The notes under the pieces: model-generated
Database searches by the model: none
The model's input: only the letters and a program-made list of their open reading frames with translations
Told to the model about the DNA's origin: nothing
Translations under genes and position numbers: made by a program
Shown here: positions 18,787 to 60,011 of the stretch, one piece after another
Position numbering within the stretch: position 1 is the first letter of the stretch
Layout: every line of letters begins with the position of its first letter
Assembly (NCBI GenBank): GCA_034086685.1
Contig: JAXDZY010000028.1
Coordinates: 2,057 to 66,056 of the forward strand
Reading direction: 5' to 3'
Length of the DNA: 64,000 bases
DNA from: Lachnospiraceae bacterium
Lineage (GTDB): Bacteria; Bacillota; Clostridia; Lachnospirales; Lachnospiraceae

Positions 18787-18792
18787 GACAAT

Positions 18793-18821: not shown

Positions 18822-18834
18822 GCACTTTTTGCTG

Positions 18835-20028: not shown

Positions 20029-20219
20029 CAGCCTTTTTCAGAGTATTTCTATTATATTGAATAAAACTGATTATGACAAGCCTGTAAATCTGTTTCTTCA
20101 GCTTCCATCCTTTCTGTCTATAAATAGCCTTTCTTTTCTGTGTTTTTCAATTTGATTTCCTGCTGTCATTCTGTTATGCTTAAATGTATGAAATCTTCAA
20201 TAGATAAAGGAGTCTTTTT

Positions 20220-21263: not shown

Positions 21264-21307
21264 ATTCCCATTGACGGTTACACCGGTATTTTTGCGGCAG
21301 CAGTATT

Positions 21308-28251: not shown

Positions 28252-28496
28252 AAAATCACCTGTTCCTTTCTTTTTCCTTTCTAAAGATTTAATGAACTGC
28301 TGAACATGACACTTCAATCCTCACTTATCATGCCAGGCAGAGCAAAAAATCTATTGGGAAGTTTTTTTATAATCATAGTACATTGTCCTATAAAAATCAA
28401 CAGGTTTTTATAAGTATATGAGGAGGGATTTCATGAGGCTGTTCTCAGCAGGCGATGCTCTGTTAATACTATCTCTCGATTCTTAAGCAGGACCTG

Positions 28497-31294: not shown

Positions 31295-31328
31295 GCCCCC
31301 GGGCTGTTGTTCCAGACAGCCCGGGGGC
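31295..31328 (-). terminator. GC-rich hairpin, probable terminator of the GH43-led operon
   Basis: 12-bp perfect stem GCCCCCGGGCTG / CAGCCCGGGGGC with a 10-nt loop, 75 nt after the stop at 31403. The minus-strand exit ATATATTTAT is only moderately U-rich. Confidence 0.5.
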
Positions 31329-31402: not shown

Positions 31403-32917
31403 TTATTCTGCCAGACCGGCATCTTCCATAGCCTGACGATTGTATTCGTTTGCTTTTTCTTCCAGTTCTGTTACCCAGTCGCTGGCATTCTTTTCACCGT
31501 TGAATACAGAATCTTCAACACCTGCATAAGGGCCATCTGCTCCTACAAAGCCTGCAAATCCGGGAATCTGGCAATCGCCGAAAGGAATAACACCCTGTTT
31601 AACCTGATCAAAGTAATCATCGAAGTATTTACCGTATTTCTTATCCTTTTCTGTCTGATCAGCTTCTGCTTTCTTCAGAGTGGGGAAGAATGCGGTCTGC
31701 ATTTCTGTCCATACTTCTTCATCCATTGTCAGAGGCATGGGCATGGACTGTTTGTAAATTTCAATGCCGGCTTCTTCGTCAACCAGAGTCTTGTAAGCTT
31801 CAACTTTTTCTTTCCAGCCGTCAGCGCCCCAGCCCATCCATTTCAGCAGTTCGTATGCTTCTCTGGGATGTTCTGTACCGGATGAAATGCCGCCGAAGTC
31901 AAGTACGCCGAATTTGTATTTGGAGTCGGTGCCTTCTACACTGGGAGTTGCATAAGGTACCATTTCAATACCTTTTGCACGGTATTCTTCTGTATCAAAC
32001 AGATTCAGGTATGTCCAGAATGCGTCTACCTGGTAACCGATCTTGCCTGATGCGCCTGCCCATTCATTGGAGCCCAGCCATGCAACGATTTCGTCTTCTG
32101 TCATGGGTGCACGGTATTTGCCTTTCATCAGCTCAGCCAGTGTGTTAACGCCCACTGCCCAGTTTTCCATATGGAAGCTTTCGCCATCCCATCCGAATTC
32201 ACCGATGCAGTTGGGATCAGCAGCTACGGGATAGTAGGTTACGATGGAGTGGAACTGGTTGAAACCGTAGATACCCTCATCGGGAGAAGTCACATCCTTG
32301 AAGGACTGAATCATTTCTTCCCATGTCCAGTCAGTATCAGGCATGGTTACATTCAGCTTTTCAAATACAGCCATATCTGCATAAATTGCATCGGGGAAGA
32401 ATTTCATGGGTGTTCCCAGCTTCTTGTCTGTTCCATAGTAACCCAGTTTTGCTCCATTGATGGAAGGAAGGATATTTTCGTTTTCAGGGTCATTTTCCCA
32501 GTATTCGGTCATATCGCCCAGCAGATCATTGGAAAGTGCGAAATCGCAGTTGCCAAGGATCATAAAGCAGTCAGGTGTTTTTCCGGTGTTCACCAGATTT
32601 AACAGTGTGTCATTGTAAGTACCGCCTGCGGGCTCGTAAATAATATTTACTTTGATGTTGGGATACTTTTCTTCGAATTTGTCTGCCAGATATTCGGTCA
32701 GAACCTTGTTATCGAAGTTCATGTAGGTCAGTTCGATTTCCTCATCGGTCATGGGCGGAAGACCTTCAGCCTCCTCACTGCCGGAACCTCCGTCGTCGCT
32801 CTGAGCTGCCTTGGTATCTGCGTCTGCGGGTTCCTTGTCATTTCCGCCGCCGCATCCTGTCAGCATTCCTGTAGCCATGGTCGCTGCAAGAAGTAAGCAT
32901 AACATTTTCTTTTTCAT
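31403..32917 (-). CDS. extracellular solute-binding lipoprotein (family 1 sugar SBP)
   Basis: 504 aa. Lipobox LTGCGGGN followed by a low-complexity linker. Adjacent to the permease pair. Confidence 0.85.
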   Translation of the reverse strand: MKKKMLCLLLAATMATGMLTGCGGGNDKEPADADTKAAQSDDGGSGSEEAEGLPPMTDEEIELTYMNFDNKVLTEYLADKFEEKYPNIKVNIIYEPAGGTYNDTLLNLVNTGKTPDCFMILGNCDFALSNDLLGDMTEYWENDPENENILPSINGAKLGYYGTDKKLGTPMKFFPDAIYADMAVFEKLNVTMPDTDWTWEEMIQSFKDVTSPDEGIYGFNQFHSIVTYYPVAADPNCIGEFGWDGESFHMENWAVGVNTLAELMKGKYRAPMTEDEIVAWLGSNEWAGASGKIGYQVDAFWTYLNLFDTEEYRAKGIEMVPYATPSVEGTDSKYKFGVLDFGGISSGTEHPREAYELLKWMGWGADGWKEKVEAYKTLVDEEAGIEIYKQSMPMPLTMDEEVWTEMQTAFFPTLKKAEADQTEKDKKYGKYFDDYFDQVKQGVIPFGDCQIPGFAGFVGADGPYAGVEDSVFNGEKNASDWVTELEEKANEYNRQAMEDAGLAE

Positions 32918-33031
32918 TTGGTTTCCTCCTTTTTAATAAATAGGTTATTTTTTACCGACCCGACAGGTTCTGGACCTGCAGTTCCATGGCAGGCCGGAAA
33001 ATTTCATATCATGGTAATCACATACCGTCGA

Positions 33032-34042
33032 TTATTCACCGGTGATACCGGTCTTATCAACACTTTCAACAAACTGTCTCTGCAGTACAAAATACAGAAG
33101 CAGAACCGGCAGAATGCTCAGCATGGTTGCAGCCATTTTGATACCTTCGTTCAGACTTCCCATGGTATCACCGGTTACAGAAGCACCGGTTGCCGTGTAG
33201 CTGTCATTGAAACCTTTCAGAGCAACAACCAGGGTGTTCCAGAATCCATCGCCGAATACGCCGCATACGTACAGCTGTGTCAGATAGGATTCATTCCAGT
33301 ACCATACCAGTGAGAACAGGAAAACAACCAGAATGGCCGGTGCTGCCGAAGGAATGGCAATTTTTACAAAGGACTTGAAATGTCCGCAGCCATCAATCTT
33401 CGCCGCTTCGATCAGTACTTTGGGTATCTGCCTGAAGAACTGATAGTAGATCAGTATGTACAGCTGGGATTTCAGTCCCTGCCCCAATAATGCCGGCAGC
33501 AGATAAGCTGTCAGTGAATCCAGAATACCCAGATCGTTGTAAAGCAGATAAGTGGGCATCATGGTAATCTGAGGCGGTATGATAAAGGACACGATCAGAA
33601 TTCCCATGAGCATCTTTTTCAGGGGGAATTCGTAACGGGCAAAACCGTATCCCACAATGGCACATACGACCATGTTCAGCAGTGTAGGAAGCCCTGCCAC
33701 TACGATGGATTTCCAGAAAGTATCCACAAAGTTCATGCTGGTAAACGCATCAATGTAGTTTTTCACATAAAGTGTACTGGGAATCCAGCTGATGGAGCTG
33801 TCCAGCAGATCCGCACGGGCCATCAGGCTCTTGCTGATCATGTAAAGTACCGGGTACAGGTAAACAAACCCGATGCAGATCAGCAGAAGATAGATTACAG
33901 CAACTTTCCCGGCACCCTGCTGATCCTTGGAGCCAAAAAGCCATTTCCGGAATCTGTTTACATCAAACTTACCGGGGCGCTTTGCAGCACTAGCGGCCCG
34001 CTTTTGCTGCTTTGGCTCTCTCTCTTTCCTTAAGCTTTTCAT
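33032..34042 (-). CDS. carbohydrate ABC transporter permease (MalG-like) with basic N-terminal extension
   Basis: 336 aa. EAAKIDGCGHFKSFVKIAIP is the EAA loop. ATG 34042 has RBS GGGGGAGAAG. Confidence 0.85.
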   Translation of the reverse strand: MKSLRKEREPKQQKRAASAAKRPGKFDVNRFRKWLFGSKDQQGAGKVAVIYLLLICIGFVYLYPVLYMISKSLMARADLLDSSISWIPSTLYVKNYIDAFTSMNFVDTFWKSIVVAGLPTLLNMVVCAIVGYGFARYEFPLKKMLMGILIVSFIIPPQITMMPTYLLYNDLGILDSLTAYLLPALLGQGLKSQLYILIYYQFFRQIPKVLIEAAKIDGCGHFKSFVKIAIPSAAPAILVVFLFSLVWYWNESYLTQLYVCGVFGDGFWNTLVVALKGFNDSYTATGASVTGDTMGSLNEGIKMAATMLSILPVLLLYFVLQRQFVESVDKTGITGE

Positions 34043-35015
34043 ACTTCTCCCCCTTTCTTCTGACTTTCCTGAGCGCCCGTTCTTCTTTCTTAATCTGCTT
34101 CTGAGCCAGCTTTACCTGCTTTGCATATGCATCCTTCTTCAGGGTCAGGAATGCAGCCACAACTGCCACCAGAATGATCACGATCAGGGAGTACAGCCAG
34201 GCCATGGCAGATGCATAGCCGTATCCTTTACTGCCTGTTGTACCGAACATGGCATCTTTAATGGTATTGATAATATTATTCTGTTCGTTATTGGACAGGA
34301 ATACTACCGTATATACCGCATTCAGCAGAATCATGGGTTTGATCGTAGGAAGCGTGATCTTCCAGAAACATACCCAGGTAGAACCGCCATCCATCTTTGC
34401 CGCTTCGTACAGAGAATTGTCAATTTTCTGTACACCGGCCAGGAAGATCAGAATCTGCACCCCGGAATACCATAGATACAGGACGATATTCTGGAAAACA
34501 TCCACTATGGCCTCCACCAGTATGGCCGGCAAAAACGACAGGGCACTGGCAATCATTGAAGTATTAAGAGAAGGAATGGAACCTGCACCCTGATCAACCA
34601 GCTGAGTCATAACAGGGCCGCTGGCGATAATAACCGGCAGGAAGAATATCAGCCGGAAAAACCCTTTTCCTTTGATTTTACTGTTCAGCAGCAATGCAAT
34701 GATCAGCGCGAATACAACGATAACGGGTACTGCAATAATCGTTTTAATCAGATACTCCCACAATTCTGTCGGGAATGTCTCATCTTCCTGAAGAATCTGT
34801 GTAAAATTCTGCATTCCGATGAAGGTACTCACACGTCCTTTGGGAGTCATCTTTACTTTACTTAAAGCAAACATAAACGACTGTCCCAGCGGGCGCAGCA
34901 CAAATACAATTACACCAATCAGCCAGGGAAGGATAAACAGATAGCCCATCATGGCTTCTCTGCTCTTAAGAGTGCCACCCATGCGCTTTTTGAGCTCTTT
35001 TTTATTTTTTGCCAT
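33990..35015 (-). CDS. sugar ABC transporter permease (MalF-like) with ~45-aa charged C-terminal tail
   Basis: 341 aa. EAAKMDGGSTWVCFWKITLP is the EAA loop. The tail is KQVKLAQKQIKKEERALRKVRRKGEKYEKLKERERAKAAKAGR. Confidence 0.85.
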   Translation of the reverse strand: MAKNKKELKKRMGGTLKSREAMMGYLFILPWLIGVIVFVLRPLGQSFMFALSKVKMTPKGRVSTFIGMQNFTQILQEDETFPTELWEYLIKTIIAVPVIVVFALIIALLLNSKIKGKGFFRLIFFLPVIIASGPVMTQLVDQGAGSIPSLNTSMIASALSFLPAILVEAIVDVFQNIVLYLWYSGVQILIFLAGVQKIDNSLYEAAKMDGGSTWVCFWKITLPTIKPMILLNAVYTVVFLSNNEQNNIINTIKDAMFGTTGSKGYGYASAMAWLYSLIVIILVAVVAAFLTLKKDAYAKQVKLAQKQIKKEERALRKVRRKGEKYEKLKERERAKAAKAGR

Positions 35016-35025
35016 GATTTCTCAC

Positions 35026-37371
35026 CTACCTTACCTCATAGGACATGCCTTCAATGGACACGCCGTCCACAGTAACCGCTTTCTGACTGTAATTTACATA
35101 AATCTTTACGCCGTTGCTGTAAGTGACTTCCGCTACATTGCTGTCATGACGCACACGATCAATAATGTATGCGCCTTTCACCTGATCATTGATGGCCTTC
35201 AGCTCCTGATAATAGCGGATGATTTCCGGACGGTATACTTCATACCTGGAAGTATACAGATCAGAAGAATTTGTATACAGAAGGTCAACCGGATCTTCCT
35301 TTGTCAGATAGAAGGAAGGATAGATACCTGTTTCCACCAGTTCCAGGAAGAATCTGGAACTGTCTGCTTCAAAGTTTGTGTAAGCTCCGTACATGGGAAT
35401 AACGCCCTTAAGTGCCATGGAAAGGAAAGGAACTTCTTCGTCGGTAAAAATATAGTTGGAGGAATTTACCGGCATATCCAGAATACTTTCCGTATTTGCC
35501 CAGTAGCAGGACAGAGGGCTTTCCAGAGCCAGATTCATCTTCTCATCAATAGTGCTGATACTTTCTTTGAATGCATTCAGAGTATCCACGCGGCTGTACT
35601 GCTTTCCGCTGTAGTTATAACTGAACAGGTGATCACTGATACCCGTCAGAGCGAGGTTTGTCACATCGGATTTTTCATAACTTTTTACGGCACTGTTCAG
35701 CCTCTCAATGGCCTTTGAAGGTGTCTGGAAATTGAAATATTCATAAATTTCTTTATAAGTATTTTCTTTATAGACACTTTCATCCAGCTTCTTGATGACA
35801 TTGAATACCGTATTGACCGTATCGGGATTGGCACGCAGCGCATCCTGATACAGATAGAACCGGATTCCTTTTTCGGTGCTTTCTTCCACCAGTCCGGTCA
35901 GATCATGGGTTCCTCCAATGCTTCGGTCCGCTTTACAGGAGGTGATGGGAACGCTCCAGATACCGCCCTTCTGCCATCCTTTGTAGACGGAGAGGATATC
36001 GGTTACCTGTTCCGACTCCAGATCTTCATACATTTCTCTGATATCATCCGTGGTTGTCATGGTTACTGTTTTCTTGCCGATCATACCGTTTTCCCGGTCA
36101 TTTCCCAGAAAATCAAGACGCACACGGAAATCTGTATCTTCTGACTGCATGCCGTCCTGTTCCAGAAGATATTCCCGGTACTGATTTGCCATGCCCGCAT
36201 AGTCTGCTTCCTCACCGGAGTTAAACAGGTAGCGGATACGGATATCATAATCCGAACGGTTCTTTTCCTGTAGCTGAACAGAACTGTCACCTTTCTGGCT
36301 GGTCAGCTGTTTGTAGATCCGGCGCATGGTAAAACGGGGAGTAACCCAGTTATAATTTGTTACCGCACCATTGGGATAAGCAATAATACTGGCATCAACA
36401 GCGCCTTCTTCGATAATTGCAAGCATGGACATCTGTGTATCCGTATGAACCATGCCGTATACGGGAGCCATAACCAGCTCGGAATCATTGACGGTCTGAT
36501 ATTCATCCCAGAACAGTGACAGTACATAGCTTTCATCCACACCGGCATTATCACCCCATACCTTCAGAGTCAGAGGAGACGAAAATCTTCCGTCTTTATC
36601 ATCCAGGTAGATCAGAGCACCGTTTCCATCCGGCACCAGCATATAGCCGTCACGCTCAGATGCATAGGTGTAGCCCAGGAACGGATATACATACATGCTT
36701 CCGATTGTCACATCCTTCTGCTCCTCTTTAATGGATTCAGAGGGAATCTCAACCGTAAATCCTTCCCCTTCCAGCGCTACTGTCATCCGGAAAGAGATTT
36801 CATATTTTTTCAGGGTCACGTCTGCCGTAAATCCATCCGCGTTGACAGATACTTTGATATCCGCATCTGCGGAAAGCAGATCTGACCGTTCTTCATTCAG
36901 GCCGTTTAATATCAGAAAGCCCACACCTGACTGAATAAAGCTTCTCCACGTTGTATTCAGAGAGTCGTCCGGGTCACTGACCGTAGACTCCATGATGGCA
37001 CCATTTGCTTTATTGCGGATGATCAGGGACAGATTTTCTTCTTTCAGGTACATTTCCACAAGGTCATTTTCAGCAATTTTTTTATGTCCCTTGATACTGT
37101 CCGGGGACTTTTCGAAAACGGCCTCTTTCTGAGCCTCTTTTTTCTCGGAAGCAGAGACTTCTACATTTTCCACTGCCTGGCCGCCTTCTTCCACACCTGA
37201 CCCGGCTGCAGCTGCTTCAGCCTGAGCTGTATCCTGACCAGCTTCCCCTTCTGTTTCTTCTACCTCTGTGGCGAAAGCGGTACTCTGAGAAATAGGTGAA
37301 AATGCAAGACCAGCAGCCAGCAGAATGGCCAGAAAACGTTTGCTTTTCTTTTCAAAATTTTTATTTGCCAA
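35026..37371 (-). CDS. large secreted protein of unknown function (possibly DUF5696-like; glycoside-hydrolase-like suspicion only)
   Basis: The ORF-track start 37413 is a TTG. I prefer TTG 37371, which has GGAGAGGTGG 9 nt upstream and gives M-ANKNFEKKSKRFLAILLAAGLAFSPISQSTAFA, a signal peptide. About 780 aa with no recognised catalytic motif. Confidence 0.6.
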   Translation of the reverse strand: MANKNFEKKSKRFLAILLAAGLAFSPISQSTAFATEVEETEGEAGQDTAQAEAAAAGSGVEEGGQAVENVEVSASEKKEAQKEAVFEKSPDSIKGHKKIAENDLVEMYLKEENLSLIIRNKANGAIMESTVSDPDDSLNTTWRSFIQSGVGFLILNGLNEERSDLLSADADIKVSVNADGFTADVTLKKYEISFRMTVALEGEGFTVEIPSESIKEEQKDVTIGSMYVYPFLGYTYASERDGYMLVPDGNGALIYLDDKDGRFSSPLTLKVWGDNAGVDESYVLSLFWDEYQTVNDSELVMAPVYGMVHTDTQMSMLAIIEEGAVDASIIAYPNGAVTNYNWVTPRFTMRRIYKQLTSQKGDSSVQLQEKNRSDYDIRIRYLFNSGEEADYAGMANQYREYLLEQDGMQSEDTDFRVRLDFLGNDRENGMIGKKTVTMTTTDDIREMYEDLESEQVTDILSVYKGWQKGGIWSVPITSCKADRSIGGTHDLTGLVEESTEKGIRFYLYQDALRANPDTVNTVFNVIKKLDESVYKENTYKEIYEYFNFQTPSKAIERLNSAVKSYEKSDVTNLALTGISDHLFSYNYSGKQYSRVDTLNAFKESISTIDEKMNLALESPLSCYWANTESILDMPVNSSNYIFTDEEVPFLSMALKGVIPMYGAYTNFEADSSRFFLELVETGIYPSFYLTKEDPVDLLYTNSSDLYTSRYEVYRPEIIRYYQELKAINDQVKGAYIIDRVRHDSNVAEVTYSNGVKIYVNYSQKAVTVDGVSIEGMSYEVR

Positions 37372-39400
37372 TCCGATACACCACCTCTCCGAATATGGAA
37401 GCAATAAATTCAATAACCTGTCTGCAAAGCATGAACAGAATAAATGCCAGCAGTGCCAGAATCAGAACTGTAAACAGGGTAAAGAAAATAATCTTGAAGG
37501 TTTCTTTTACAGTATAGTTATTTGTCTCTTTAATCGTCATGAATACCAGGATTGCAACCCATGCAAAAATGAAGATTTCAGCAAACTGGATCAGGAATAC
37601 TTCGTTATAGGTAATAACATTACTGAGCAGAATGCAGAAAGGCTGCAGGATCACATAGGGAGCCAGACAGAATGCCAGACCGCAGTACAGACGCTTAAAG
37701 GTACTTTCACCATCATTGATGGTACACATCAGATAATTACAGATAACCAGCACCAGGAAAACACCGATCAGTGTCAGGATATCCGTTGCGATGGTATATC
37801 TGCCTTCACGGACTGTCCTCAGCAGGAAACCGCAGCAGTACTTGTTCAGCAGATAAATCAGTGTTGTCAGTCCGAGCATGATGTTTGCATTGAGAAATGC
37901 GCTCTTTCCTTCATACCTGAGTCCGTAAGCACCATCCACCGGATGTTTCATGTAATAGAACATGTACATGAATCTTGTCCATACACCGCTGCCCCGGATT
38001 CCTTCCGTTGCTTTGATTACGGGATTAAAGATTCCTTTTTTCTTCTGGAAACGTTTCAAAAGGCTGATCACCAGAATAATCAGTACGATTACACCCACTG
38101 CAGGGATCATGTTGTTTCTCAGCCAGGTATTGCGCACTTCCCAGAAAGCATCGGAATATACGCTGAAGGCTTTTGATACTCTTGCATATTTCAGTGCGTT
38201 TTCATAATCTTCTTCCTGAAGATAGGAACGGCTCATTGCCTCATTTGCATAGTCGAATAAACTGTTCATTTCCAGGACTTTTTCCAGAGGCTCCTTGCTT
38301 TCCGAATACCGTCCGTTTTCATACAGATTCAGAGCTTCATGCAGCAGGTTGGTAAACTCGGTTGCACGGAATACCTGTACCTGACAGCTGTCGGAGTCCA
38401 GAATATAAAGATTATCACCGGCATCCACATCAATTGCTTCAACCTTTTTACTTAAACCGATTCGAAAACGTCCGTCATCACGTCCGCCGAATACGAACAG
38501 CATATCGCCTTCCGAGTTGTATTCATAAATATAACCGTCAGAAGATGCCACATAGATATTGTCATGATTACCTACCGCAACCGCTGTTTCCTTACCGTCA
38601 TATGCATCGGGCTCGATCAGGTTGGAACCGGCAATATTCAGCTTTTTCAGGCTGCTTTCTTTTTCACCGGGTGTTACGGTGTAGATCAGCCCCTGTTCGT
38701 CAATTGCCACATTTACAGGTGTTGCAGGCAGATTGCTTACCATCTTCGCCAGCTGTGCATCGGTAAAGACAGCTTCCTGCACCATTCTCAGCAGGCTGAC
38801 AGAAGCGTAGTTGGTACCGAAGTACCCCAGGAAAGTACCGCCCTCTGTGGGAGTCAGCTGTACCAGACCATTTCCGTTACCTTCGCAGACAATATACATA
38901 TCTCCGCCTGCGTTTACAACGATCTTAATGGGTTTAAAATCGCCGCTTCCGTATAAAGGATGATTGGGCTTTGCATATTCTGCAGTCACTTTGCCGTCTT
39001 TATCAAATACATAAACTTTACCGGAGTGATCTGCCACATATACGGCCTTATCATCTGTTACAAACACGCCATAGGGCTCTTTCAGAATTCCTTCTCCATA
39101 AACAGAAACCAGATTGCCTTCCAGGTCTGTCTCATAGACAACCCCGGCTCCGGCATCCGCAATATACATATATCCGTCTTCCGTTACCTTGAGATCCTTG
39201 GGGTTAACCATAGAATAATCTCCCAGCTTCACAATGGAAGTTTCGGGCATATATGCAGTCTGTGTCTCTGTCACATAGCCGTATCCGTCAATGGTATAGG
39301 TCTTATAGGGCACCGCCGCACCTGCAGACATGGGAAATACCATTGTGAGGACCAGAAGGAGCAGAAGAACGCCAGCGCACTGTTTTGTCCACTTTTTCAT
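37361..39400 (-). CDS. fusion protein: signal peptide + NHL-repeat beta-propeller + TPR-like segment + C-terminal Yip1-type polytopic membrane domain
   Basis: 679 aa.
- Repeated motifs of the type VYVADHSGKVYVFDKDGKV, MYIADAGAGVVYETDLEGN and IYVASSDGYIYEYNSEGDM (NHL-like blades).
- A TPR-like segment: EALNLYENGRYSESKEPLEKVLEMN...YENALKYARV.
- Then about 6 TM helices with MKHPVDGAYGLRYEGK, as in Yip1-family proteins. Confidence 0.7.
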   Translation of the reverse strand: MKKWTKQCAGVLLLLLVLTMVFPMSAGAAVPYKTYTIDGYGYVTETQTAYMPETSIVKLGDYSMVNPKDLKVTEDGYMYIADAGAGVVYETDLEGNLVSVYGEGILKEPYGVFVTDDKAVYVADHSGKVYVFDKDGKVTAEYAKPNHPLYGSGDFKPIKIVVNAGGDMYIVCEGNGNGLVQLTPTEGGTFLGYFGTNYASVSLLRMVQEAVFTDAQLAKMVSNLPATPVNVAIDEQGLIYTVTPGEKESSLKKLNIAGSNLIEPDAYDGKETAVAVGNHDNIYVASSDGYIYEYNSEGDMLFVFGGRDDGRFRIGLSKKVEAIDVDAGDNLYILDSDSCQVQVFRATEFTNLLHEALNLYENGRYSESKEPLEKVLEMNSLFDYANEAMSRSYLQEEDYENALKYARVSKAFSVYSDAFWEVRNTWLRNNMIPAVGVIVLIILVISLLKRFQKKKGIFNPVIKATEGIRGSGVWTRFMYMFYYMKHPVDGAYGLRYEGKSAFLNANIMLGLTTLIYLLNKYCCGFLLRTVREGRYTIATDILTLIGVFLVLVICNYLMCTINDGESTFKRLYCGLAFCLAPYVILQPFCILLSNVITYNEVFLIQFAEIFIFAWVAILVFMTIKETNNYTVKETFKIIFFTLFTVLILALLAFILFMLCRQVIEFIASIFGEVVYRIGK

Positions 39401-39412
39401 CTTCTCCCCTCC

Positions 39413-40285
39413 TTATTTGATACCGGAATGGGCCATTGTATTCATGACACTCTTCTGGCATAAGATAAACATCAGCAGGTTCGGTACGAACATGATCAGC
39501 GTTGCTGCGGCAGCAACACCCTGGCCGGCAACCGTGTTGTTGGCATTGGTCAGTGTATTCATATAGAACGCCAGCGTACGCAGACCATCTTCATTCATAT
39601 ACAGATTGGAGGTTTCCACATTGATCCATACCTGCTGGAATGCCAGGATGGCTGATGTGGCAACTGCAGGACGCACCAGCGGGAAAATGATTTTCCAGTA
39701 AACGATAAAATCATTTGCACCGTCCATATAGGCAGCGTCGATAAGCGCATCCGGGATCTGGTCGATGAACTGTTTTACCAGGAACAGACTTACCGGCATC
39801 GCTACCAGAGGCAGGATGTGCGCCAGATAATTATTGGTCATACCCAGCTGTTTGATAATCAGATAACGGGGAATCATAACCGCCACCGGCACAAACATCA
39901 GGGCCATATTATTGATTTCCATCAGGGCTTCTTTCCCTTTGAATTTCAGTTTGGAAAGAGCAAAGCCCGCAGAGGTGGAAAGCACGATGGACAGCAGAAC
40001 GTCTGCCACAGTAACAATCAAACTGTTAAATACATAACGGCTCAGCGGAATTCCCGAGGTCTGAGATGCTTTCATCAGATCACGGAAGTTGTCCAGCGTG
40101 GGTCTCGTTACAAAAAACCTGGGAGGAAACGCAAACAGCTCTTCCACCGGTTTGAATGCATGACAGATGATATAAATGATCGGCAGAATCATGAAGATTG
40201 CCAGCGGCAGTACTGCAATGATCAGTTTGATCTGACCGCGTTCAAATCGTTTCGGATTAATATTACTTCCTCTGTATCCAGCCAT
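39413..40285 (-). CDS. carbohydrate ABC transporter permease (MalG-like)
   Basis: Start at MAGYRGSNINPK (ATG 40285, RBS AAGGAGGA). EAA loop DAAYMDGANDFIVYWKIIFP. Confidence 0.85.
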   Translation of the reverse strand: MAGYRGSNINPKRFERGQIKLIIAVLPLAIFMILPIIYIICHAFKPVEELFAFPPRFFVTRPTLDNFRDLMKASQTSGIPLSRYVFNSLIVTVADVLLSIVLSTSAGFALSKLKFKGKEALMEINNMALMFVPVAVMIPRYLIIKQLGMTNNYLAHILPLVAMPVSLFLVKQFIDQIPDALIDAAYMDGANDFIVYWKIIFPLVRPAVATSAILAFQQVWINVETSNLYMNEDGLRTLAFYMNTLTNANNTVAGQGVAAAATLIMFVPNLLMFILCQKSVMNTMAHSGIK

Positions 40286-40301
40286 ATTCCGTCCTCCTTT
40301 C

Positions 40302-41225
40302 TCAATCTTTTTCCGCAAACAGTTTCTTCGCAACAGTGGAGAACAGCCATACGATACCAAGCAGTACTACTGAGATGGCAGCGGCATAACCCATTTCATA
40401 ACGAATGAAACCGTAGTCTTCAATATGGTTAACAATTAACTGTGCAGCATATCCGGGTGTCGGATTTACACCGGTCAGCATAACGCCGATGGTACCGTTG
40501 CCGAATGTATTTACAATGGCCATAACCGCACCGAACAGCATCTGGGGTTTCATGGTGGGGATCGTAATATAGATCATCTCCTGAAAACGGTTCTTGATAC
40601 CGTCCAGAGCACCTGCTTCGTACAATTCCTCATCCGCATTCAGAATACCTGCCAGCATGGCCAGGAAACCTACACCCATACTGCTCCATAATGCAACAAT
40701 GATAACGATAGGAAGCAGATAGCGGGTATCTACCAGCCACACGATGGGCTCTGTGATAATACCCAGATTCATCAGGATACTGTTCAGATAACCGGTCTGA
40801 TCACCGGTGAAAATAATCTTCCATACAACTGCCATGGCAACACCTGAAGTCATACTGGGTGAATAGAAAATCAGAGCCAGAATCGTTCTGGGAACATTGG
40901 ACAGCTGAGCCAGCATCCATGCCAGAAGGAAAGATAACAGATAACCTCCCACTCCGACAATAATTACGTAAATAACCGTGTTGGGCAGAACATACTGCAT
41001 AAAGATTTCATCCTGAGTGATCAGGTTGATGTAATTCATAAACCCTACAAAATCAGGAAATGAGATCGTATCAAAGTTGGTAAAGGACAACAGAATTGCC
41101 ATGAGCATGGGAGCTATGATGAATGTCACAAACAGTACAAGGTAGGGAAGCAAAAATAAATATGCTCTCTTATTGCCCGATTCCCGTTTGGCAATGTTGT
41201 TCTTTTTTCCCGCAGGACGTTTCAT
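40302..41225 (-). CDS. sugar ABC transporter permease (MalF-like)
   Basis: Start at [10 protein letters not shown] (ATG 41225, RBS AAAGGAGGAA). EAA loop [21 protein letters not shown]. Confidence 0.85.
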
Positions 41226-44200
41226 TCTGCTGTTCCTCCTTTCCCCAAAGCGCATTCATTCAGGATTTCTTCAACACGATCCAGTGTGGGAACCACATAA
41301 GGTGTGATTACATTTCCGTTGGCATCGTTGTATCCGAATTCCTCCAGCTTACGTTCTGTTTCACGATTGATCCGCTTCGTGGCGTTATCCAGAGTACGCC
41401 TCAGATTCTTGCCGTCCACGACAATCGAGTTATATGCATTACTGATTTCACGTTCAACCATGTAGCTGCCGGGAAGTCTGGGAGATTCGTAGATCCATTC
41501 AGCCTGTTCCAGAATCGTATTCTTGTCGATGGTCTTCCAGGGAAGGAGACCAAACGCTTCTTTATTGGCTGTATTCCACATGTAGGTGGAACCGTAGGTA
41601 ATCTGCAGAGTCTGTCCGAACTCGGCCTGTACCTCTGTGGAGGACCACCATTTCATGAATTCCCATGCCTGAGCTTCCCGCTCATCACCGGACTCAAACA
41701 TAACGGTACTTTCCGCACCACCTGAGATATAACGCGAAACATTTCCATTCTCATCTTCCACACCGGGAACAGGAGAAATGGTCCAGCTGTTGGCAATTTC
41801 CGGAGCAGCGTTCAGCAGCATGTTGTATACGGCATAATCCGCAATACCGATGGGCAGTGAACCGTTTCGGAAATGCTGATAAAAGTTGGGGATATCCTTG
41901 GGCAGGTTATAAATGGTAAACAGCTCTGTCAGTTCCTTGAAACCTTTTACGGATTCCTCGCTGGTCAGGTTTGAATCTCCGGCTGTTTCCTTATAAAGGC
42001 TGCCGCCGTTCTGCAGGATCAGAGGCGTTGTTCCATGAAAGTTTCTCATGGAAAGCATACCTGCAGTAGGGTAGTAAAAATTCATGCCGCGCATCTGAAG
42101 ACTGGGCAGCAGATTCTTCACATCCTGAATCGTGTCGGGAATCTCAAGACCCAGCTGATCAAAAATATCCGTACGTACATAAAGTACCCAGAAATTCATG
42201 GTCTCCGGCAGAGAATAGATTCCGTCATCGATGGTGGAAGGAATCAGAAGACCCTCCTCAAACCGTTCTGCCACATCCGCAAAGTCATCAAATTCCGTAA
42301 GATCCTTCAACGCTCCGCGGATACCCAGTTCAAAAGGAACCGCATAATTAATACCGGTGGCAATATCCGGTGCATCTCCGGATGCATTGGCCAGAATCAG
42401 TTTGTTCTGATCGGGCATCAGTGCCAGATCCACTTCAATTCCTGTTTTGGGGGTGAAATCTTCATCGATCATTTTCTGCATGATTTCCAGATACTGTCTG
42501 GAACGGTTTACCCATACCTGCAGATGTTCTTCGTTGGTATTGCCGGTTGAATAAGCCTGAGAAGCAAACGACGTTACAAAACGTTTCACACTTGATGCCA
42601 CAGACTTGACAATTCCTGCATTTCCGGGAAGCTTTGCATCTTTCTGATAGATGTAGATCCGGTCAATGGCCAGCTCGTTTTTATTCAGATTATCAATCAG
42701 ATTCGCCAGAAACTGATTGACGGAGTTGGTACTTGTGGTCAGCTCTGAAACTCTGTATGCCAGCTGATCCGGTTCCGATGCCAGACTGCGAAGCTGCTCG
42801 GATGCAATCTGAGCAGATGAAAAAGCACCGATTTCTTTTACTCCTGGAGTATAAACCAGCATACTTTCACACAGACTGTCCAGCTTGTCCGCATATTCAT
42901 TCAGACGGGTCACTGCATCGGGAATATAGCTTTCAATATCCAGATCACGATATTTATCCTTATTTGTACCTGCAACTTTTGTGATCTGCAGATTCAGGCT
43001 GTTGACACCGCTCATGATCTCATCAATGCCTTCCAGTACTTTGCAGAGCGGATCTGCCGCAATGGTAAAGGAAACTGTATGTACACCCTTTTCCAGATAA
43101 ATTCCCATGGAATTATCATCCTGATCCTTAAAGGCAGCTGCCTGATACTTCTTTCCGTATTTCAGTGCATAATTGAAGAATTCATCATTGGGAATCCTGC
43201 CATCCACTTCCACGTTGACAAATACCGGAAAATCTGCTTTTTCACTCTGCAGATAATTCATGGCAAGATAATAAACACCTTCTTCTTCCACTTCAAACTG
43301 ATAGGTTACCTGACTTCCTGCATCAGAAAAAGATTCTGAATCAATGGTATTCAGTGCCTTGGTCTTCACTTCATAGGGATCCAGATTAATATTATATTCA
43401 CATGCTGCACGGATTGAGGACGCGTTCCGTCTGTACATGTTTTCTCCCTGAAGTGTAATCACCTTATCGCCGGCCATGGCTTCCTGAGCACCTTCATAAG
43501 CTGGAATATCGGCCTCCGATACCGGCTCCAGATAAAGATTTCCCAGCAGTACAGTGCCTTCCAGCATTGTAATGTCCAGTTCGTTCTCTCCCTTTTTCAG
43601 CTCAACCGCCAGGGGGCTTGTGTGACGATAGGTACTGTCCATGATATACTTATTTTCCCATTCCCTGATCTTTTCAGGTACCGGAACAATCTGATTGCCG
43701 TAACGGTCATAGGAGATTTCTTCCGGATCTTCCCACTGTGCTTCAAATGTCAGATCACGCAGCTCATAGAACTGATAATCACCATTTACCATCATGGAAA
43801 ATTCGATGGGAAGTACGGTATCCCCCGCGTCCAGATAATCCAGACTGATCAGATATCTCGCCGTTTCCGGCGCTTCGATCACAAGCTTTCCGCTGTCGCC
43901 AACAGTCAGCTGGGGAACCGGTGAAGAATAACCAAAATTATCACTGGCTGTAACAGCTCCGATTCCGGGCCGGAAAACATCCTGAATCTGATATTCCAGC
44001 TTTCTCCCCTGGTAATAAGGGGTCTGGGAAGCTCCGTCCACTACAGTATAATTCTTCTCAATCATTTCATTGGAAAAATCTTCATCTGTAATGTAATTAC
44101 CTTCAGATGCAGCAGGCACATCTTCCGTTTTGTCGGATGATGTCTCATCCAAGCTTCCGGTCGCGGAAACCGTCATGCCCGATGTCAGCAGAATCAATGC

Positions 44201-44242
44201 CAGCATCAGAGCTGCAAGCCGGGTTTTCTTTCCTCTTCGCAT
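41222..44242 (-). CDS. 1006-aa extracellular protein: signal peptide + two beta-sandwich (CBM-like) modules + helical linker + family-1 solute-binding domain
   Basis: - Signal [29 protein letters not shown].
- The N-terminal half has two segments with the GxYxL...V.V.V[DN]G pattern: [11 protein letters not shown]...FSMMVNGD and [11 protein letters not shown]...VNVEVDGR.
- The C-terminal ~450 aa is SBP-like: [33 protein letters not shown].... Confidence 0.7.
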
Positions 44243-44290
44243 ATCATTCCTCCTTTTTCTTATTTTTCCTTATTTTATTACTTTCCAGAG

Positions 44291-45856
44291 TTACGGTTCC
44301 GCCTCATAACCGCTTCCCCAAATCGCATACCCTTTATCGGATAGTGCAGTAAAAGTAATCACATTTTTGAAACCGTACTGATCCCACTGCTTCCTGAAAA
44401 AGCCCCGGTATTCCACACCGCCCAGAACCAGCACTGCCTGACCACCCTCCTTCATCTCCCAGGTTCCTTCGAAGGCTCCTGTGATACTGTGATCTTCATT
44501 GAGGATAATGTCATCCGATTTCTGTATATTCGCAGTAATATTATGTAAATGATTAATGATCTTATAAGGACCGGGAATCATATCTTCCGAAGCAGATTCC
44601 GCCGGTTCTCCCGTATAGCGGTACGGGGATACCACAAACCATCCGTCTTCATTCAGATACATCTGATGAACTCGAACCTGATGCTGTTCATCCTTTCCTT
44701 CAAATCGGGTATGAAATACCAGGAAATATTCTCCTGTCTCATCATCCCGGATCGCACTGTTGTGTCCTGGTGACACATAGCCGGCACGATACTGCCCGAA
44801 TTCTCCTTCTGTATATTCAAAGCTGAAATTCCCCATCAGCTTAACACCATATTTTGCAGCAGCAGAATCATCAAAAGCGCTTCCCTGAGGACCTTTACAC
44901 CCTTCCATGTTCTGTCCTTCCGAATCATAATACGGTCCGTCCGGTGTCCTGGAACGGCACACACGGATGTTGTAACCTCCGTCGGAGGCCAGACCTCCGA
45001 AAGAAAGAAAGAGATAATAGTAATCCGTCTCAGGGCTATAGATAATATAAGGTGCTTCAATCCTCAGATGGCTGCCTCCCAGAAGCTTTTTGCCATACCC
45101 TGTTTCCAGAGGAAATCCTGTCTCAGGATCCATTTCCAGAATATAGATTCCTCCTGAATAGGAACCGTATACCATCCACAATTTCCGGTCTTTGTCAAAA
45201 AACACACAGGGATCCACCACATTGGGCTCCACTGTGGAATCATAAATATCCCCGTTCTCATCCGGTTCTTCCGGACTCTGGCCGGATTTCAGGATCACGC
45301 CGAGATCCTTATAGGGCCCCTCCGGCTGGTCAGCCACCGCAATACCCAGTGCAGATAAAGGACTTGTTCCCTGACAGTTGCAGTAATACATATAATACCG
45401 CCCATCCGCCAGCTGAATCACATCCGGTGCCCAGAAGGTGTCAGTCTGTGCCCAGGTAAACGCCTCACTCATCTCCGACGCGGCATCAGGGATAATCACA
45501 TTATCAGGACATACTCCCGAATCGATCAGTTCCCAGTGAACCAGATCCGTGGAACTGGCCGCAGCCAGATGAGAACCGAAGATGTAATACCGGTCTCCCG
45601 CCTTCATAATAGAAGGATCATGAACTGATACATCTGCAAAATCATAATCCAGAGCCTCCCCGCAGGTCAGAGTAACCCCTTCCAGATAATCCTTTCCTGT
45701 CTGACCATCTTCTGTCCGCGTCTTTTCAGCCTCTGTCTGAACCGTACGTTCCGTCGTATCGATGCTCTGTCCGCAGCCGCTTATGCAGGAAGCGGCAAGT
45801 CCGAAACACAGACCCATGACGATCATCTGTTTTTTTCTTTGTTGTTTCATCTCCAT
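44291..45856 (-). CDS. glycoside hydrolase family 43 lipoprotein (endo-arabinanase/arabinofuranosidase-like) with extra C-terminal domain
   Basis: 521 aa. Lipobox ISGCGQS. VHDPSIMKAGDRYYIFGSH, FWAPDVIQLADGRYYMYY and RIEAPYIIY are GH43 blades carrying the catalytic acids. Confidence 0.85.
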   Translation of the reverse strand: MEMKQQRKKQMIVMGLCFGLAASCISGCGQSIDTTERTVQTEAEKTRTEDGQTGKDYLEGVTLTCGEALDYDFADVSVHDPSIMKAGDRYYIFGSHLAAASSTDLVHWELIDSGVCPDNVIIPDAASEMSEAFTWAQTDTFWAPDVIQLADGRYYMYYCNCQGTSPLSALGIAVADQPEGPYKDLGVILKSGQSPEEPDENGDIYDSTVEPNVVDPCVFFDKDRKLWMVYGSYSGGIYILEMDPETGFPLETGYGKKLLGGSHLRIEAPYIIYSPETDYYYLFLSFGGLASDGGYNIRVCRSRTPDGPYYDSEGQNMEGCKGPQGSAFDDSAAAKYGVKLMGNFSFEYTEGEFGQYRAGYVSPGHNSAIRDDETGEYFLVFHTRFEGKDEQHQVRVHQMYLNEDGWFVVSPYRYTGEPAESASEDMIPGPYKIINHLHNITANIQKSDDIILNEDHSITGAFEGTWEMKEGGQAVLVLGGVEYRGFFRKQWDQYGFKNVITFTALSDKGYAIWGSGYEAEP

Positions 45857-46135: not shown

Positions 46136-46171
46136 AAAAAGCACTTCTGAACAACCAGAAGTGCTTTTTTT
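46136..46171. terminator. bidirectional-shaped rho-independent terminator after GH51 copy 1
   Basis: A5, GCACTTCTG, a 6-nt loop, CAGAAGTGC, then T7. A second short hairpin, GTGCGCC/GGCGCAC, lies at 46113..46130. Confidence 0.7.
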
Positions 46172-46206: not shown

Positions 46207-47715
46207 CTATCTGAAGGACACCTCAAGCTGAAGAACACTGCATGCAGGTATTGTAAATTTCATACCCTGATCAGTAATTTCCACCTGATCAAAAGCCCTG
46301 ATCTGAACATTCTCAGGTTCTTCAAACGTGTTCATGGCATGCATCTCTTCCGCTACGATCTGTCCTTTCACGCCGGCAATCTTTCCTGATGTAACAATTA
46401 CATCCATATCACAGGCCTGCTCCAGAGACTGATTGGTCAGAGTGATGTGCATGGTTCCATCTTCTGCCATGGATACGGACTCAGTCAGATTGGGCACCTG
46501 ATACTCATCTTCCATACCGATCATCTCTGTGTCCATATGGGATTCCAGAAGCTTTGCATCCTGATGTTCCTTATACATGTCGAAAATATGATAAGTAGGT
46601 GTTTTCACCATCTTATCTCCCTCTGTCAGAATCACAGCCTGCAGTACATTAACCATCTGAGCCAGATTGGCCATCTTCACGCGGTCGGAATGCTTATTGA
46701 AAATATTCAGCGTGATGCCGGCAACCAGCGCATCGCGCATGGTATTCTGCTGATACAGGAATCCCGGATTTGTTCCGGGTTCTACGGTAAACCAGGTTCC
46801 CCACTCATCCACGATCATGCCGATCTCTTTATCCGGATCGTACTGGTCCATAATGGTTCCATGTCTGCGGATCAGCTCATCCATATAGTAGGCCTTGCTT
46901 AAAGTCTTATACCATACCTTATCGTCAAAATCCGTTGCACTGCCCTTGATTTCCCATCCTTCAGGATGTACATAATAATGAAGGGAAAGACCATCCATAA
47001 AGCCATGAGATTCTTCGGGACAGTGATTAAAGCAGGTTTTTAATACCTCTTCTGTCCATTCGTAATCATCCACATTGGCACCGCAGCAGATTTTCTTAAT
47101 CGAATGCTCCTTTTTGTAATTTCTTACATAGGTCTGATATCTGCGGTATTCATTGGCATAAAAATCGGGATTCATATTGCCTCCGCATCCCCAGTTTTCA
47201 TTACCTACACCAAAAAAATCCACTTTCCATGCCTTTTCATGGCCATTCTGTTTTCTCAGCTCAGCCATCGGAGAAACTCCTTCAAAGGTCATATACTCAA
47301 CCCATTCGGACATCTCCTGTACCGTACCGCTTCCCAGATTGCCGTTGATATAAGTCTCGCATCCCAGCTGGCGGCATAACTCAAAATACTCATGGGTACC
47401 AAAGCTGTTATCTTCCACAACGCCGCCCCAGTGCGTATTAATAATCTTTTTGCGATTTTCGCGGGGGCCGATCCCCTCCATCCAGTGATACTCATCTGCA
47501 AAGCAGCCGCCAGGCCAGCGCAGCACCGGAACTTTTATTTCCTTTAATGCCTCAACTACATCTGTACGCATTCCATTAACATTGGGAATGGGAGAATCCT
47601 CACCAACAAAAATCCCCTCATAAATACATCTTCCCAGGTGTTCAGAAAAATGTCCGTAAATCTCCTTATTAATCTTACTTACCTCATGTTCTGGATTAAT
47701 TACTAATTTTGCCAT
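46207..47715 (-). CDS. abfA: alpha-L-arabinofuranosidase, GH51 (copy 1)
   Basis: Start at [11 protein letters not shown] (ATG 47715, RBS GGAGGAAG). [30 protein letters not shown] and [11 protein letters not shown] are GH51 signatures. Confidence 0.9.
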
Positions 47716-47813
47716 TGGTTTACTGCTTCCTCCATTAAAATATAGTAACTGTTCAGAGCACCCCCCCTGATCAGTCGCAGAATATAATTTTTTCAGGAAC
47801 ACACGGGTATCCG

Positions 47814-57672: not shown

Positions 57673-58317
57673 TCATTTTTCCTCCAGTTCTTTTTGAAGG
57701 TCTTCCGGTCTCATATATTTTCTGAATATTCTTTCCAGTATCAGATTCTGAAAAAGTCCGAATCCTCCCGGGAATATGATGAGCAGGGACTGTATGTTAT
57801 TGCAGATAAACACACACGCCACAAAAACCACAACAAGGAGTGCTGACCATCCGATATTGACAATCATAAAAACAAAGGATTTCTGCAGTGCCTCTCTGAT
57901 ACCCCCTTCAAATCTTGCCATATAGGGGAAAACATAGAATACCCATGCCAGAGCCGCTGCTGACAGTACCAGAAAGAAATAATACAGCATGCCCAGCGGG
58001 GACTCCTGCTGCAATACCTGTTTCATGAGATTTACATCCAGGAACAGAAAAACTGCGAGAACAAGAAAAATCAGCCATGTTAATGTGGATTTTTTTAAAG
58101 CATTTTTAAATGCCGGAAAATATTCTTTCCATACATAGCTTCTTCCTTTGCGTATGCATTTGTTTACAGTATAATATAACGCAGCCGAAGATGCCCCTAT
58201 GGTAATGATGGGAATGCTGGTAACGATCCACAGCACACTTGCCAGGAGGCAATCCGCAAAAATGTTCATAACCTGAATGAATTTATTAGTTTCGTAATTT
58301 AAATTTAATCCTGTCAT
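57673..58317 (-). CDS. YesL-family (DUF624) membrane protein
   Basis: Start at MTGLNLNYETNKF (ATG 58317, RBS AGGGGGA). ADCLLASVLWIVTSIPIITIGASSAALYYTVNKCIR is the DUF624 hallmark. Confidence 0.8.
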   Translation of the reverse strand: MTGLNLNYETNKFIQVMNIFADCLLASVLWIVTSIPIITIGASSAALYYTVNKCIRKGRSYVWKEYFPAFKNALKKSTLTWLIFLVLAVFLFLDVNLMKQVLQQESPLGMLYYFFLVLSAAALAWVFYVFPYMARFEGGIREALQKSFVFMIVNIGWSALLVVVFVACVFICNNIQSLLIIFPGGFGLFQNLILERIFRKYMRPEDLQKELEEK

Positions 58318-59997: not shown

Positions 59998-60011
59998 AGT
60001 TCCTCCAAAAA

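Follow-up and report, generated by a model that had tools for sequence, protein, structure and literature searches.

A conserved, uncharacterised cassette of two sugar importers and two accessory proteins in an arabinan-associated locus of a Lachnospiraceae bacterium

The closest described counterparts of the locus reported here are the arabinan systems of Bacillus subtilis (AraNPQ, AbfA, AbnA/Abn2) and Geobacillus stearothermophilus (AbnEFJ, AbnA, AbnB, AbfA/B), which likewise combine a CUT1-type ATP-binding cassette (ABC) importer with glycoside hydrolase (GH) genes of families GH43 and GH51 and with araABD genes. In these systems the ATPase is supplied in trans (for the role of MsmX, PMC5730181). 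Our locus occupies positions 31403-45856 of a 64,000-nucleotide stretch of DNA from a Lachnospiraceae bacterium (assembly GCA_034086685.1, contig JAXDZY010000028.1), the whole of which we call the window. Whereas the Bacillus and Geobacillus systems each have one solute-binding protein (SBP) and one permease pair, this locus has two of each, and it encodes a giant SBP (gSBP) bearing domains that resemble carbohydrate-binding modules (CBMs), a membrane protein that joins an NHL propeller to a Yip1 domain, and a protein of family DUF5696, none of which is part of the two described systems. A further difference is that its AbnB-like GH43 enzyme is a lipoprotein and for that reason extracellular. 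Judged by gene order in related genomes, eight of the nine genes are a conserved, uncharacterised cassette that occurs across Firmicutes.

Two kinds of polysaccharide utilization locus (PUL) offer further comparisons. In the Gram-positive PULs (gpPULs) of Roseburia and Eubacterium rectale, genes for carbohydrate-active enzymes (CAZymes), a regulator and an ABC transporter lie together, and an arabinan gpPUL has been predicted (PMC5320581). Such loci are loose co-localisations of variable order, whereas the eight genes of the cassette form a rigid unit, which comprises two importers and also two accessory proteins that are absent from that description. With the Sus-like PULs of Bacteroidetes it shares, by analogy only, the logic of surface glycan binding, an enzyme-like surface protein and a dedicated importer, on a platform that is re-used by swapping parts. 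Here, in contrast, there is no outer membrane and the transport is done by ABC importers; no SusC or SusD domain was found in any scanned open reading frame (ORF) of the window. The building blocks of the locus (CUT1 transporters, GH43, a GH-like fold, Yip1 and NHL) are all of known kinds, but their combination has no match among the closest known systems, and our literature search found no publication describing it.

The cassette emerged from comparing gene order around related DUF5696 genes. A genome scan with a DUF5696 alignment gave 284 species-level matches, the best 80 of which (43-89% identical) were analysed as loci; these came mostly from Lachnospiraceae, with some from Oscillospiraceae and other Clostridia. 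The core order gSBP, permease A1 (permA1), permA2, NHL/Yip1, DUF5696, permB1, permB2 was complete in 69 of these loci and consistent in the other 11, which are cut by contig ends. The same was true of 80 metagenome loci (47 complete, 33 cut yet consistent) that were retrieved with distant DUF5696 representatives, about 25% identical to one another, as seeds, and in which DUF5696 is 25-45% identical. Six further loci with still more distant DUF5696 members, from a Paenibacillus sp., an Acholeplasma sp., a Ruminococcaceae-like contig and three others, again show this order, which is kept in 166/166 cassette-bearing loci. The initial annotation had asked whether the giant SBP, the Yip1 fusion and the large protein now placed in DUF5696 occur together in other genomes; among the 166 cassette loci there is no exception. 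The eighth gene, encoding the second SBP (SBP2), follows permB2 in nearly all close relatives, while in distant ones the usual place of an SBP gene is upstream of gSBP, and no SBP gene was called alongside several distant cassettes. Culturable hosts include Lachnoclostridium phytofermentans KNHs2131, Anaerosporobacter mobilis, Anaeromicropila populeti, Thermoclostridium stercorarium and Paenibacillus. For the L. phytofermentans proteins, cluster entries gave generic names and no locus tags by which to link them to published transcriptomes. One Clostridiaceae metagenome-assembled genome (MAG; locus L036) has a second cassette in tandem, with a gSBP gene (18264-21293) and permA1 beginning 2.6 kb past the SBP2 gene of the first, which suggests paralogous cassettes inside one genome.

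Conservation is uneven along the cassette. Median identity between the window and distant cassettes is highest for permA1 (59%), permA2 (52%) and the SBP domain of gSBP (43%), followed by permB2 (42.5%), permB1 (41%), the propeller half of the NHL/Yip1 protein (34%) and its Yip1 half (31%); it is lowest for DUF5696 (29%), the N-terminal half of gSBP (26.5%) and SBP2 (25%). On these figures transporter A behaves like a conserved core, and SBP2, DUF5696 and the CBM-like domains like a specificity module. The neighbours of the distant cassettes are diverse, comprising a GH31 lipoprotein, a PF10091 'glycoamylase', GH35, GH16, GH3, GH94, GH30 and LacI regulators. The Paenibacillus cassette adjoins GH38, that of Acholeplasma adjoins NamZ, GH3, GH18 and genes of MurNAc/GlcNAc catabolism, and a third (L165) adjoins GH20, NAGPA and NagB. 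Because distant cassettes adjoin such unlike CAZymes, the cassette is, to judge from its neighbourhoods, a general platform that is re-used for chemically very different glycans. The cassette as such is therefore not specific to arabinan, which the initial annotation had proposed as the substrate of the whole machine.

Table 1. Features of the locus and its flanks, with positions in the window; the last two genes and the second hairpin are given as context.
Feature	Position	Strand	Characteristics
GH43 endo-arabinanase-like lipoprotein	44291-45856	-	Glyco_hydro_43 1.4e-38 and GH43_C 1.3e-23 (Pfam); AbnB-like catalytic domain plus lipocalin-like GH43_C domain
Giant SBP (gSBP), 1006 aa	41222-44242	-	SBP_bac_1/8 at residues 587-879 only (Pfam)
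Permease A1, MalF-like, 307 aa	40302-41225 (ORF to 41255)	-	BPD_transp_1; EAA loop EAGALDG
Permease A2, MalG-like, 290 aa	39413-40285 (ORF to 40360)	-	BPD_transp_1 1.1e-15; EAA loop DAAYMDG
NHL/Yip1 fusion, 679 aa	37361-39400	-	Yip1 (PF04893) 37.2 bits vs 28.6 cutoff, residues 535-652; NHL 20.8 vs 20
DUF5696 protein, 781 aa	35026-37371 (ORF to 37413)	-	PF18952 578 bits vs 25.6 cutoff, 608/612 profile positions
Permease B1, MalF-like, 341 aa	33990-35015	-	BPD_transp_1; EAA loop EAAKMDG; Lys/Glu-rich C-terminal tail
Permease B2, MalG-like, 336 aa	33032-34042	-	BPD_transp_1 8.3e-17; EAA loop EAAKIDG
SBP2, lipoprotein, 504 aa	31403-32917	-	SBP_bac_1 2.8e-13, residues 74-361; lipobox LTGC
Promoter-like site	45941-45913	-	TTGAAA, 17-nt spacer, TATAAT; 11/12; in 350-nt gap upstream of GH43 gene
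Terminator-like hairpin	31295-31328	-	13-14 pairs, 11 G-C; 75 nt past SBP2 stop codon
Second strong hairpin	46136-46169	-	Ends upstream GH51 gene
GH51 alpha-L-arabinofuranosidase	46207-47802	-	Alpha-L-AF_C 1.1e-53; own hairpin (previous row)
Winged-helix regulator candidate, 306 aa	47814-48734	-	HTH_24, HTH_5 and MarR matches; ArsR/MarR-like

The GH43 gene, by contrast with the eight others, is a variable partner outside the conserved core. Around related cassettes it is found upstream, downstream, inverted or not at all, and its median identity to the window in the 80 close loci is 36%, against 48-73% for the cassette proteins. For these reasons the conserved unit is the eight-gene cassette rather than the 'GH43-led operon' of the initial annotation. 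The protein itself scores 676 bits with the NCBIfam model for AbnB-type endo-arabinanases, which is below the equivalog cutoff of 750 bits. It has a lipobox (ISGC) and the motifs HDPS, WAPD and IEAP, which we take to be the Asp/Asp/Glu catalytic motifs. Its ORF opens with ATG-GAG-ATG. A Shine-Dalgarno-like AAGGAG runs directly up to the first of these ATG codons, a spacing that makes the second one, at 45850, the more probable initiation codon.

Neighbouring genes nevertheless point to arabinan as far as the clade of this window is concerned. Pfam searches placed GH51, the winged-helix regulator, araA, araD, an araB-like FGGY kinase, tkt and tal near the operon, in agreement with the arabinan context proposed at the outset. 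The 80 close loci have similar surroundings: an AbnB-like GH43 adjoins 54 of them, a 317-aa GH43 protein without signal peptide 43, the winged-helix regulator 42, GH51 28, a LamG-type lipoprotein 17 and araA 10. Given these recurring neighbours and the ara genes of the window itself, arabinan or arabino-oligosaccharides are a well-supported prediction for the substrate of this clade's cassette. The GH51 enzyme probably degrades imported arabino-oligosaccharides in the cytoplasm. The regulator candidate has an N-terminal winged helix and a C-terminal domain of about 220 aa to which no assignment could be given; its relatives beside the 42 arabinan-clade cassettes mostly lie divergently, on the opposite strand. 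As a candidate regulator of arabinan/arabinose genes, it differs in type from AraR. Directly downstream of SBP2, 17 arabinan-clade loci, unlike the window, encode a surface protein of some 530-590 aa. It is a lipoprotein or, in locus L058 (16091-17869), has a C-terminal transmembrane anchor, and the L058 protein contains two Laminin_G_3 (concanavalin-like) domains, which suggests an additional glycan-binding component.

The nine genes are tightly packed. All nine consecutive minus-strand ORFs were present in the ORF listing at the positions of Table 1, and the same nine genes were called on an identical 16-kb contig of a public Lachnospiraceae MAG assembly. From the GH43 gene to SBP2, the successive junctions are a gap of 48 nt, an overlap of 4, gaps of 16 and 12, an overlap of 11, a gap of 10, an overlap of 53 and a gap of 114 nt. 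The site at 45941-45913 is the top minus-strand sigma-70-like match of the region; the total number of promoter-like sites is at the level of shuffled sequence, and the site is to be read as a consensus match only. Strong terminator-like hairpins occur at just two places, downstream of SBP2 and between the GH43 and GH51 genes, the T tract behind the former being weak (ATATATTTAT). Hairpin matches inside the operon are stems of 5-7 pairs, and the 17 found in total compare with 13.8 +/- 4.8 in shuffled sequence. The 114-nt gap before SBP2 has one 10/12 promoter-like match and no significant RNA structure when its folding is compared with that of shuffles (z = -0.38). As for inverted repeats in the promoter region, we found just A/T-rich matches of doubtful meaning. 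Coordinates, spacing and signals thus agree with the initial annotation, which had described nine minus-strand genes running from a promoter at about 45.93 kb to a hairpin at 31.3 kb, with gaps of 114 nt or less, or overlaps, and without an internal terminator. Co-transcription of all nine genes is plausible on this layout. The domain calls of that annotation were likewise recovered with Pfam and NCBIfam for GH43, the giant SBP, the permease pairs, NHL, Yip1, DUF5696 and the SBP lipoprotein; the exception is its TPR region, for which matches were weak only.

Units A and B each consist of an SBP and two BPD_transp_1 permeases above the Pfam cutoffs and are of the CUT1 type (MalEFG-like). The two pairs are distant from each other, with permB1 26% identical to permA1 and permB2 25% identical to permA2. 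Since all four permeases have an EAA loop, both pairs should dock an ABC ATPase. Neither the operon nor any other Pfam-scanned ORF of the 64-kb window yielded an MsmK-type sugar ABC ATPase, as the initial annotation had already noted for the operon; the sole ABC_tran ORF found, at 15669-16442, belongs to a different transporter type. Nor is an ATPase gene conserved beside related cassettes among the close and distant loci that we inspected. The last 45 or so residues of permease B1 are a tail rich in Lys, Glu and Arg (33990-34150). The final 53 nt of the permB1 gene overlap the start of the permB2 gene, and the N-terminus of permease B2 is as charged as this tail.

The two SBPs differ in build and in anchoring. 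The gSBP sequence begins with a signal peptide without lipobox, followed by beta-sandwiches at about 75-240 and 260-395, a helical bundle at 397-520 and a MalE-like domain at 574-1000. Its AlphaFold2 (AF2) model (pLDDT 79, pTM 0.79), run whole through Foldseek, superposes on oligosaccharide SBPs with a TM-score of up to 0.81. The list of matches was filled by SBP and MBP-fusion structures, and for the N-terminal sandwiches and the helical bundle it gave no fold assignment. Over the sandwich region, weak CBM_35 matches occur in 11 of 32 gSBP homologues and GH115_C matches in 7. A lipobox is rare among gSBP homologues (3/110, 1/67 and 0/39 in three sets) and common among those of SBP2 (55/71 and 18/25). 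An N-terminal transmembrane anchor takes its place in gSBP of L165 and of the wall-less Acholeplasma. Lacking a lipid anchor, gSBP of walled Firmicutes needs some other means of staying near its permeases.

Such a means could be the 679-aa membrane protein encoded directly after transporter A. Hydropathy and conservation profiles divide it into a signal peptide, an extracytoplasmic NHL propeller (about 30-345), TPR-like helices (about 346-425), a transmembrane helix (430-448), a poorly conserved cytoplasmic linker and a Yip1 domain with several transmembrane segments (about 500-679). Residues 57-345 match multiple NHL propellers of the PDB (1e-8 to 1e-6), and the Yip1 part has four strong and one weaker hydrophobic segments between about 505 and 655. 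The TPR region gave weak matches only, with faint TPR matches in homologues. In three distant cassettes, one of them that of Acholeplasma, two adjacent genes encode the propeller-TPR-transmembrane part and the Yip1 part separately (L163 7826-9987, L165 7548-9989 and L168 8042-9996), the stand-alone Yip1 gene encoding 209-214 aa, which shows the 679-aa protein to be a fusion of two cooperating modules. A precedent exists in Bacillus, where YknW, a member of the Yip1 family, has been reported to influence how the YknXYZ ABC complex assembles (PMC4887032). As in the cassette, the gene for a Yip1-family membrane protein accompanies those of an ABC transporter there; YknYZ, however, is an exporter of the MacB type that works with a membrane-fusion protein, YknW is without the propeller/TPR ectodomain, and the likeness is that of a shared Pfam family. 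The fusion may, as the initial annotation suggested, anchor or gate a physical complex at the cell surface.

The DUF5696 gene always lies directly upstream of permB1-permB2, in the usual place of an SBP gene. The AF2 model of its product (42-sequence alignment, pLDDT 80.6, pTM 0.83) predicts a signal peptide, a disordered linker, a beta-supersandwich of about 300 residues, a (beta/alpha)8-like barrel and a C-terminal beta-sandwich. This is the architecture of GH129, GH101, GH36, GH31 and GH97 enzymes, which Foldseek retrieved at E values of 1e-28 to 1e-10: the best PDB matches were GH129 5opq (1e-28, target-normalised TM-score 0.68) and NagBb GH129 5wzn (1e-21), then GH101 (1e-15) and GH36 alpha-galactosidases (1e-12), with GH31 and GH97 weaker. 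Sequence identity to these structures is just 7-13%, and DUF5696 differs from GH129 and GH101 also in having a signal peptide or membrane anchor and in being locked into a transporter cassette. Searches of PDB sequences, with the single protein or with the 42-sequence profile, returned no meaningful match, and Pfam found neither Glyco_hydro_129 nor Glyco_hydro_101 in the window protein. A relaxed Pfam scan of 30 distant members produced one GH101 match (E 0.04), too weak to use. On the model, then, the fold is glycoside-hydrolase-like, which gives a predicted three-domain structure to what the initial annotation had listed as a secreted unknown of about 780 aa; whether the protein is catalytic appears about evenly balanced.

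Among its conserved residues, D248, D420 and D510 are candidates for catalytic positions. Polar residues at the C-terminal ends of predicted barrel strands are conserved (D420, W466, D510, R594, N666, E692), N666 in 100% of representatives; D420 is D or E in 87%, and D510 is D in 66% and N in 20%. A PDGxGAL loop is conserved too, and D248 is D or E in 100%. E128, D510, E536 and E668 are invariant within the arabinan clade only. By profile search the family comprises 5,087 clusters at 50% identity (E up to 1e-3), or 3,071 at E up to 1e-30. The only sampled member outside a cassette is a very distant stand-alone lipoprotein (P0510, L167 2110-4332), whose neighbours are Amidase_3, a 2-hydroxyacid dehydrogenase, AP_endonuc_2 (sugar-phosphate-isomerase-like) and a heparinase II/III-like gene, with GH20 further along. 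A role of DUF5696 in cell-wall remodelling was considered and dropped because the cassette occurs in wall-less Acholeplasma. The initial annotation had left room for the 679-aa and 780-aa proteins to belong to families of defined role; Pfam, NCBIfam and PDB sequence searches matched neither to a characterised family. The literature was equally silent, as we found nothing relevant on DUF5696, on Yip1 in connection with sugar importers, NHL or arabinan, or on the T. stercorarium genes around Cst_c11200.

We consider it reasonably probable that the locus is an arabinan-dedicated copy of a widespread Firmicute glycan-acquisition cassette, and that it works as follows. The GH43 lipoprotein, an AbnB-like endo-arabinanase, would cut extracellular arabinan into oligosaccharides. 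The CBM-like sandwiches of gSBP would capture chains or long oligosaccharides, and its MalE-like domain would hand the ligand to permease pair A. DUF5696, exported and held at the cell surface, would bind or trim glycan beside permease pair B, which would be supplied by the SBP2 lipoprotein. A shared MsmK/MsmX-type ATPase encoded elsewhere would energise both importers. The NHL/TPR/Yip1 protein would serve as an assembly subunit, its Yip1 domain docked to the permeases and its outward propeller and helical region keeping the anchor-less gSBP, DUF5696 or both at the membrane. Imported arabino-oligosaccharides would be cleaved by the cytoplasmic GH51 enzyme (joined by a GH43 enzyme in relatives), and arabinose would pass through AraA, AraB and AraD to transketolase and transaldolase in the pentose phosphate pathway. 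Within this scheme, uptake of arabinan-derived sugars is well supported, and the genes with their domain folds, the synteny, the arabinan neighbourhood, the lack of an ATPase gene, the EAA loops and the anchoring signals are observed; we infer the complex, the division of labour between A and B, catalysis by DUF5696 and co-transcription. More broadly, and with some doubt on our part, the cassette could be an unrecognised multi-protein glycan-acquisition machine, in which the unusually conserved importer A and the propeller/Yip1 protein form a substrate-independent core and importer B and DUF5696 are the exchangeable parts that fit it to a substrate, DUF5696 being either a new GH family or a dead GH-fold holder.

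Several observations weigh against the scheme. No acid pair conserved across the family was found at the canonical barrel positions of DUF5696, E536 and E668 being confined to the arabinan clade. When a 138-sequence DUF5696 alignment was compared by hhalign with GH31 sequences from flanking genes, a local match of 16% probability set the GH31 nucleophile opposite LALTG, which contains no acid, and a global run gave nothing. Since DUF5696 adjoins enzymes for both alpha- and beta-glycans, a single catalytic specificity is hard to reconcile with its distribution. The proposed contact between Yip1 and the permeases is argued from gene adjacency together with one distant precedent. The 'signal peptide' of gSBP might be an uncleaved anchor, in which case the argument about its retention becomes weaker. 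Lastly, the loci were sampled via DUF5696, so the synteny ties DUF5696 to the cassette but does not do so for every gSBP.

How much of the cassette is specific to its glycan, and which part does the chemical work, can be read in other ways. Transporter A and the NHL/Yip1 protein could be a substrate-independent engine, acting as a scaffold or as an ATP-driven conformational motor on surface proteins, while the CBM-like domains of gSBP, DUF5696, SBP2 and permB1/B2 confer specificity. The uneven conservation described above would fit: across clades with unlike CAZymes, permA1, permA2 and the SBP domain of gSBP stay at 59%, 52% and 43%, whereas SBP2, DUF5696 and the N-terminal half of gSBP fall to 25%, 29% and 26.5%; unrelated CUT1 permeases of this operon give a baseline of 25-26%. 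SBP2 is also mobile in position and, beside several distant cassettes, no SBP gene is called, and the one characterised bacterial Yip1 protein partners a mechanotransmitting MacB-type ABC system. We nonetheless think this rather unlikely, as type I CUT1 importers are not known as motors, the SBP domain of gSBP has a normal MalE-like fold whose nearest matches bind oligosaccharides, and high conservation could equally reflect structural constraint from multiple partners or a shared ligand chemistry. Alternatively, DUF5696 might be the key surface enzyme, a new GH family whose specificity changes from clade to clade, here an arabinan-debranching or exo-acting enzyme whose products are imported by the remaining cassette. 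One possibility would be a beta-L-arabinopyranosidase or alpha-L-arabinofuranosidase, comparable to galactosidase-fold enzymes that act on L-arabinose; Geobacillus arabinan clusters include a GH27 beta-L-arabinopyranosidase. The three-domain fold, the polar residues at the barrel-strand ends, the stand-alone lipoprotein member in a catabolic locus and, faintly, the single GH101 match speak for an enzyme, and the four clade-invariant acidic residues resemble specificity determinants. The missing universal acid pair counts against it here as well, as does, at low confidence, the want of an acid where the GH31 nucleophile aligns; no sequence-level tie to any GH family was found, and the universal pairing with Yip1, in loci for alpha- and beta-glycans alike, suggests a more generic role. 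On balance, we regard the enzyme as a tentative possibility.

Two simpler explanations fare far worse. The locus could be nothing but two ordinary, independent sugar ABC importers lying beside two unrelated genes, without forming a functional unit; each half does resemble a normal CUT1 set, and sugar operons without an ATPase gene are common in Firmicutes. An order that is identical in every cassette locus, down to 25-30% protein identity and from Lachnospiraceae and Oscillospiraceae to Paenibacillus and Acholeplasma, in proteins far better conserved than the flanking GH43, makes chance adjacency extremely improbable, and we consider it effectively excluded by synteny. The cassette might instead serve glycan export or the biogenesis or remodelling of the cell envelope, given that a glycan-biosynthesis cluster lies in the same window (1.6-15.3 kb) and that polymers of the cell itself are conceivable targets of DUF5696. 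That cluster, however, is 16 kb away and not conserved beside the cassette, catabolic genes flank the cassette throughout (GHs, LacI/GntR regulators, sugar isomerases and kinases), permeases of the SBP-dependent MalFG type work as importers, and the cassette is present in Acholeplasma, which has no wall. We give this explanation hardly any credence; catabolic neighbourhoods and synteny effectively exclude it. An arabinan-dedicated copy of a general uptake cassette remains the account that we prefer.

The conventional arabino-oligosaccharide locus at 57673-63374 (minus strand), with an SBP, two permeases, GH51 and a DUF624 membrane protein (57673-58371), is of the textbook type known from B. 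subtilis and Geobacillus. DUF624 (YesL-like) proteins are another kind of small membrane protein that accompanies CUT1 importers, and they are encoded directly after permB2 in L163 and L165; they belong to a family unrelated to the cassette proteins, have no ectodomain and lie outside the conserved core. The minus-strand glycan-biosynthesis cluster at 1600-15342 contains dTDP-rhamnose genes, glycosyltransferases, an EpsG-like polymerase, an acyltransferase, a TupA-like ATP-grasp protein and a priming sugar transferase. Its G+C content is 36-40%, against 43-48% in the remaining window, and it is possibly a horizontally exchanged capsule/exopolysaccharide island. A 782-aa ORF at 25969-28317 (minus strand), in a stretch of 39% G+C, has weak C-terminal Ig-like/fibronectin-III matches; it is probably a surface protein and appears to have no relation to the operon.

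Lachnospiraceae and their kin are major degraders of fibre in the gut, and their glycan capture and import are far less understood than the Sus systems of Bacteroidetes. The cassette recurs next to enzymes that act on arabinan, alpha- and beta-glucans, mannosides and amino-sugar glycans, and it is a clean marker by which loci for glycan uptake can be predicted in Firmicute genomes. If the proposed complex is real, it would explain the constant pairing of two importers, the role of bacterial Yip1 proteins and of DUF5696, and how a binding protein without lipid anchor is retained on a Gram-positive cell. If the cassette is indeed a multi-protein glycan-acquisition machine, it would be a Gram-positive counterpart of the Sus paradigm and would give Yip1 proteins their first role in nutrient uptake.

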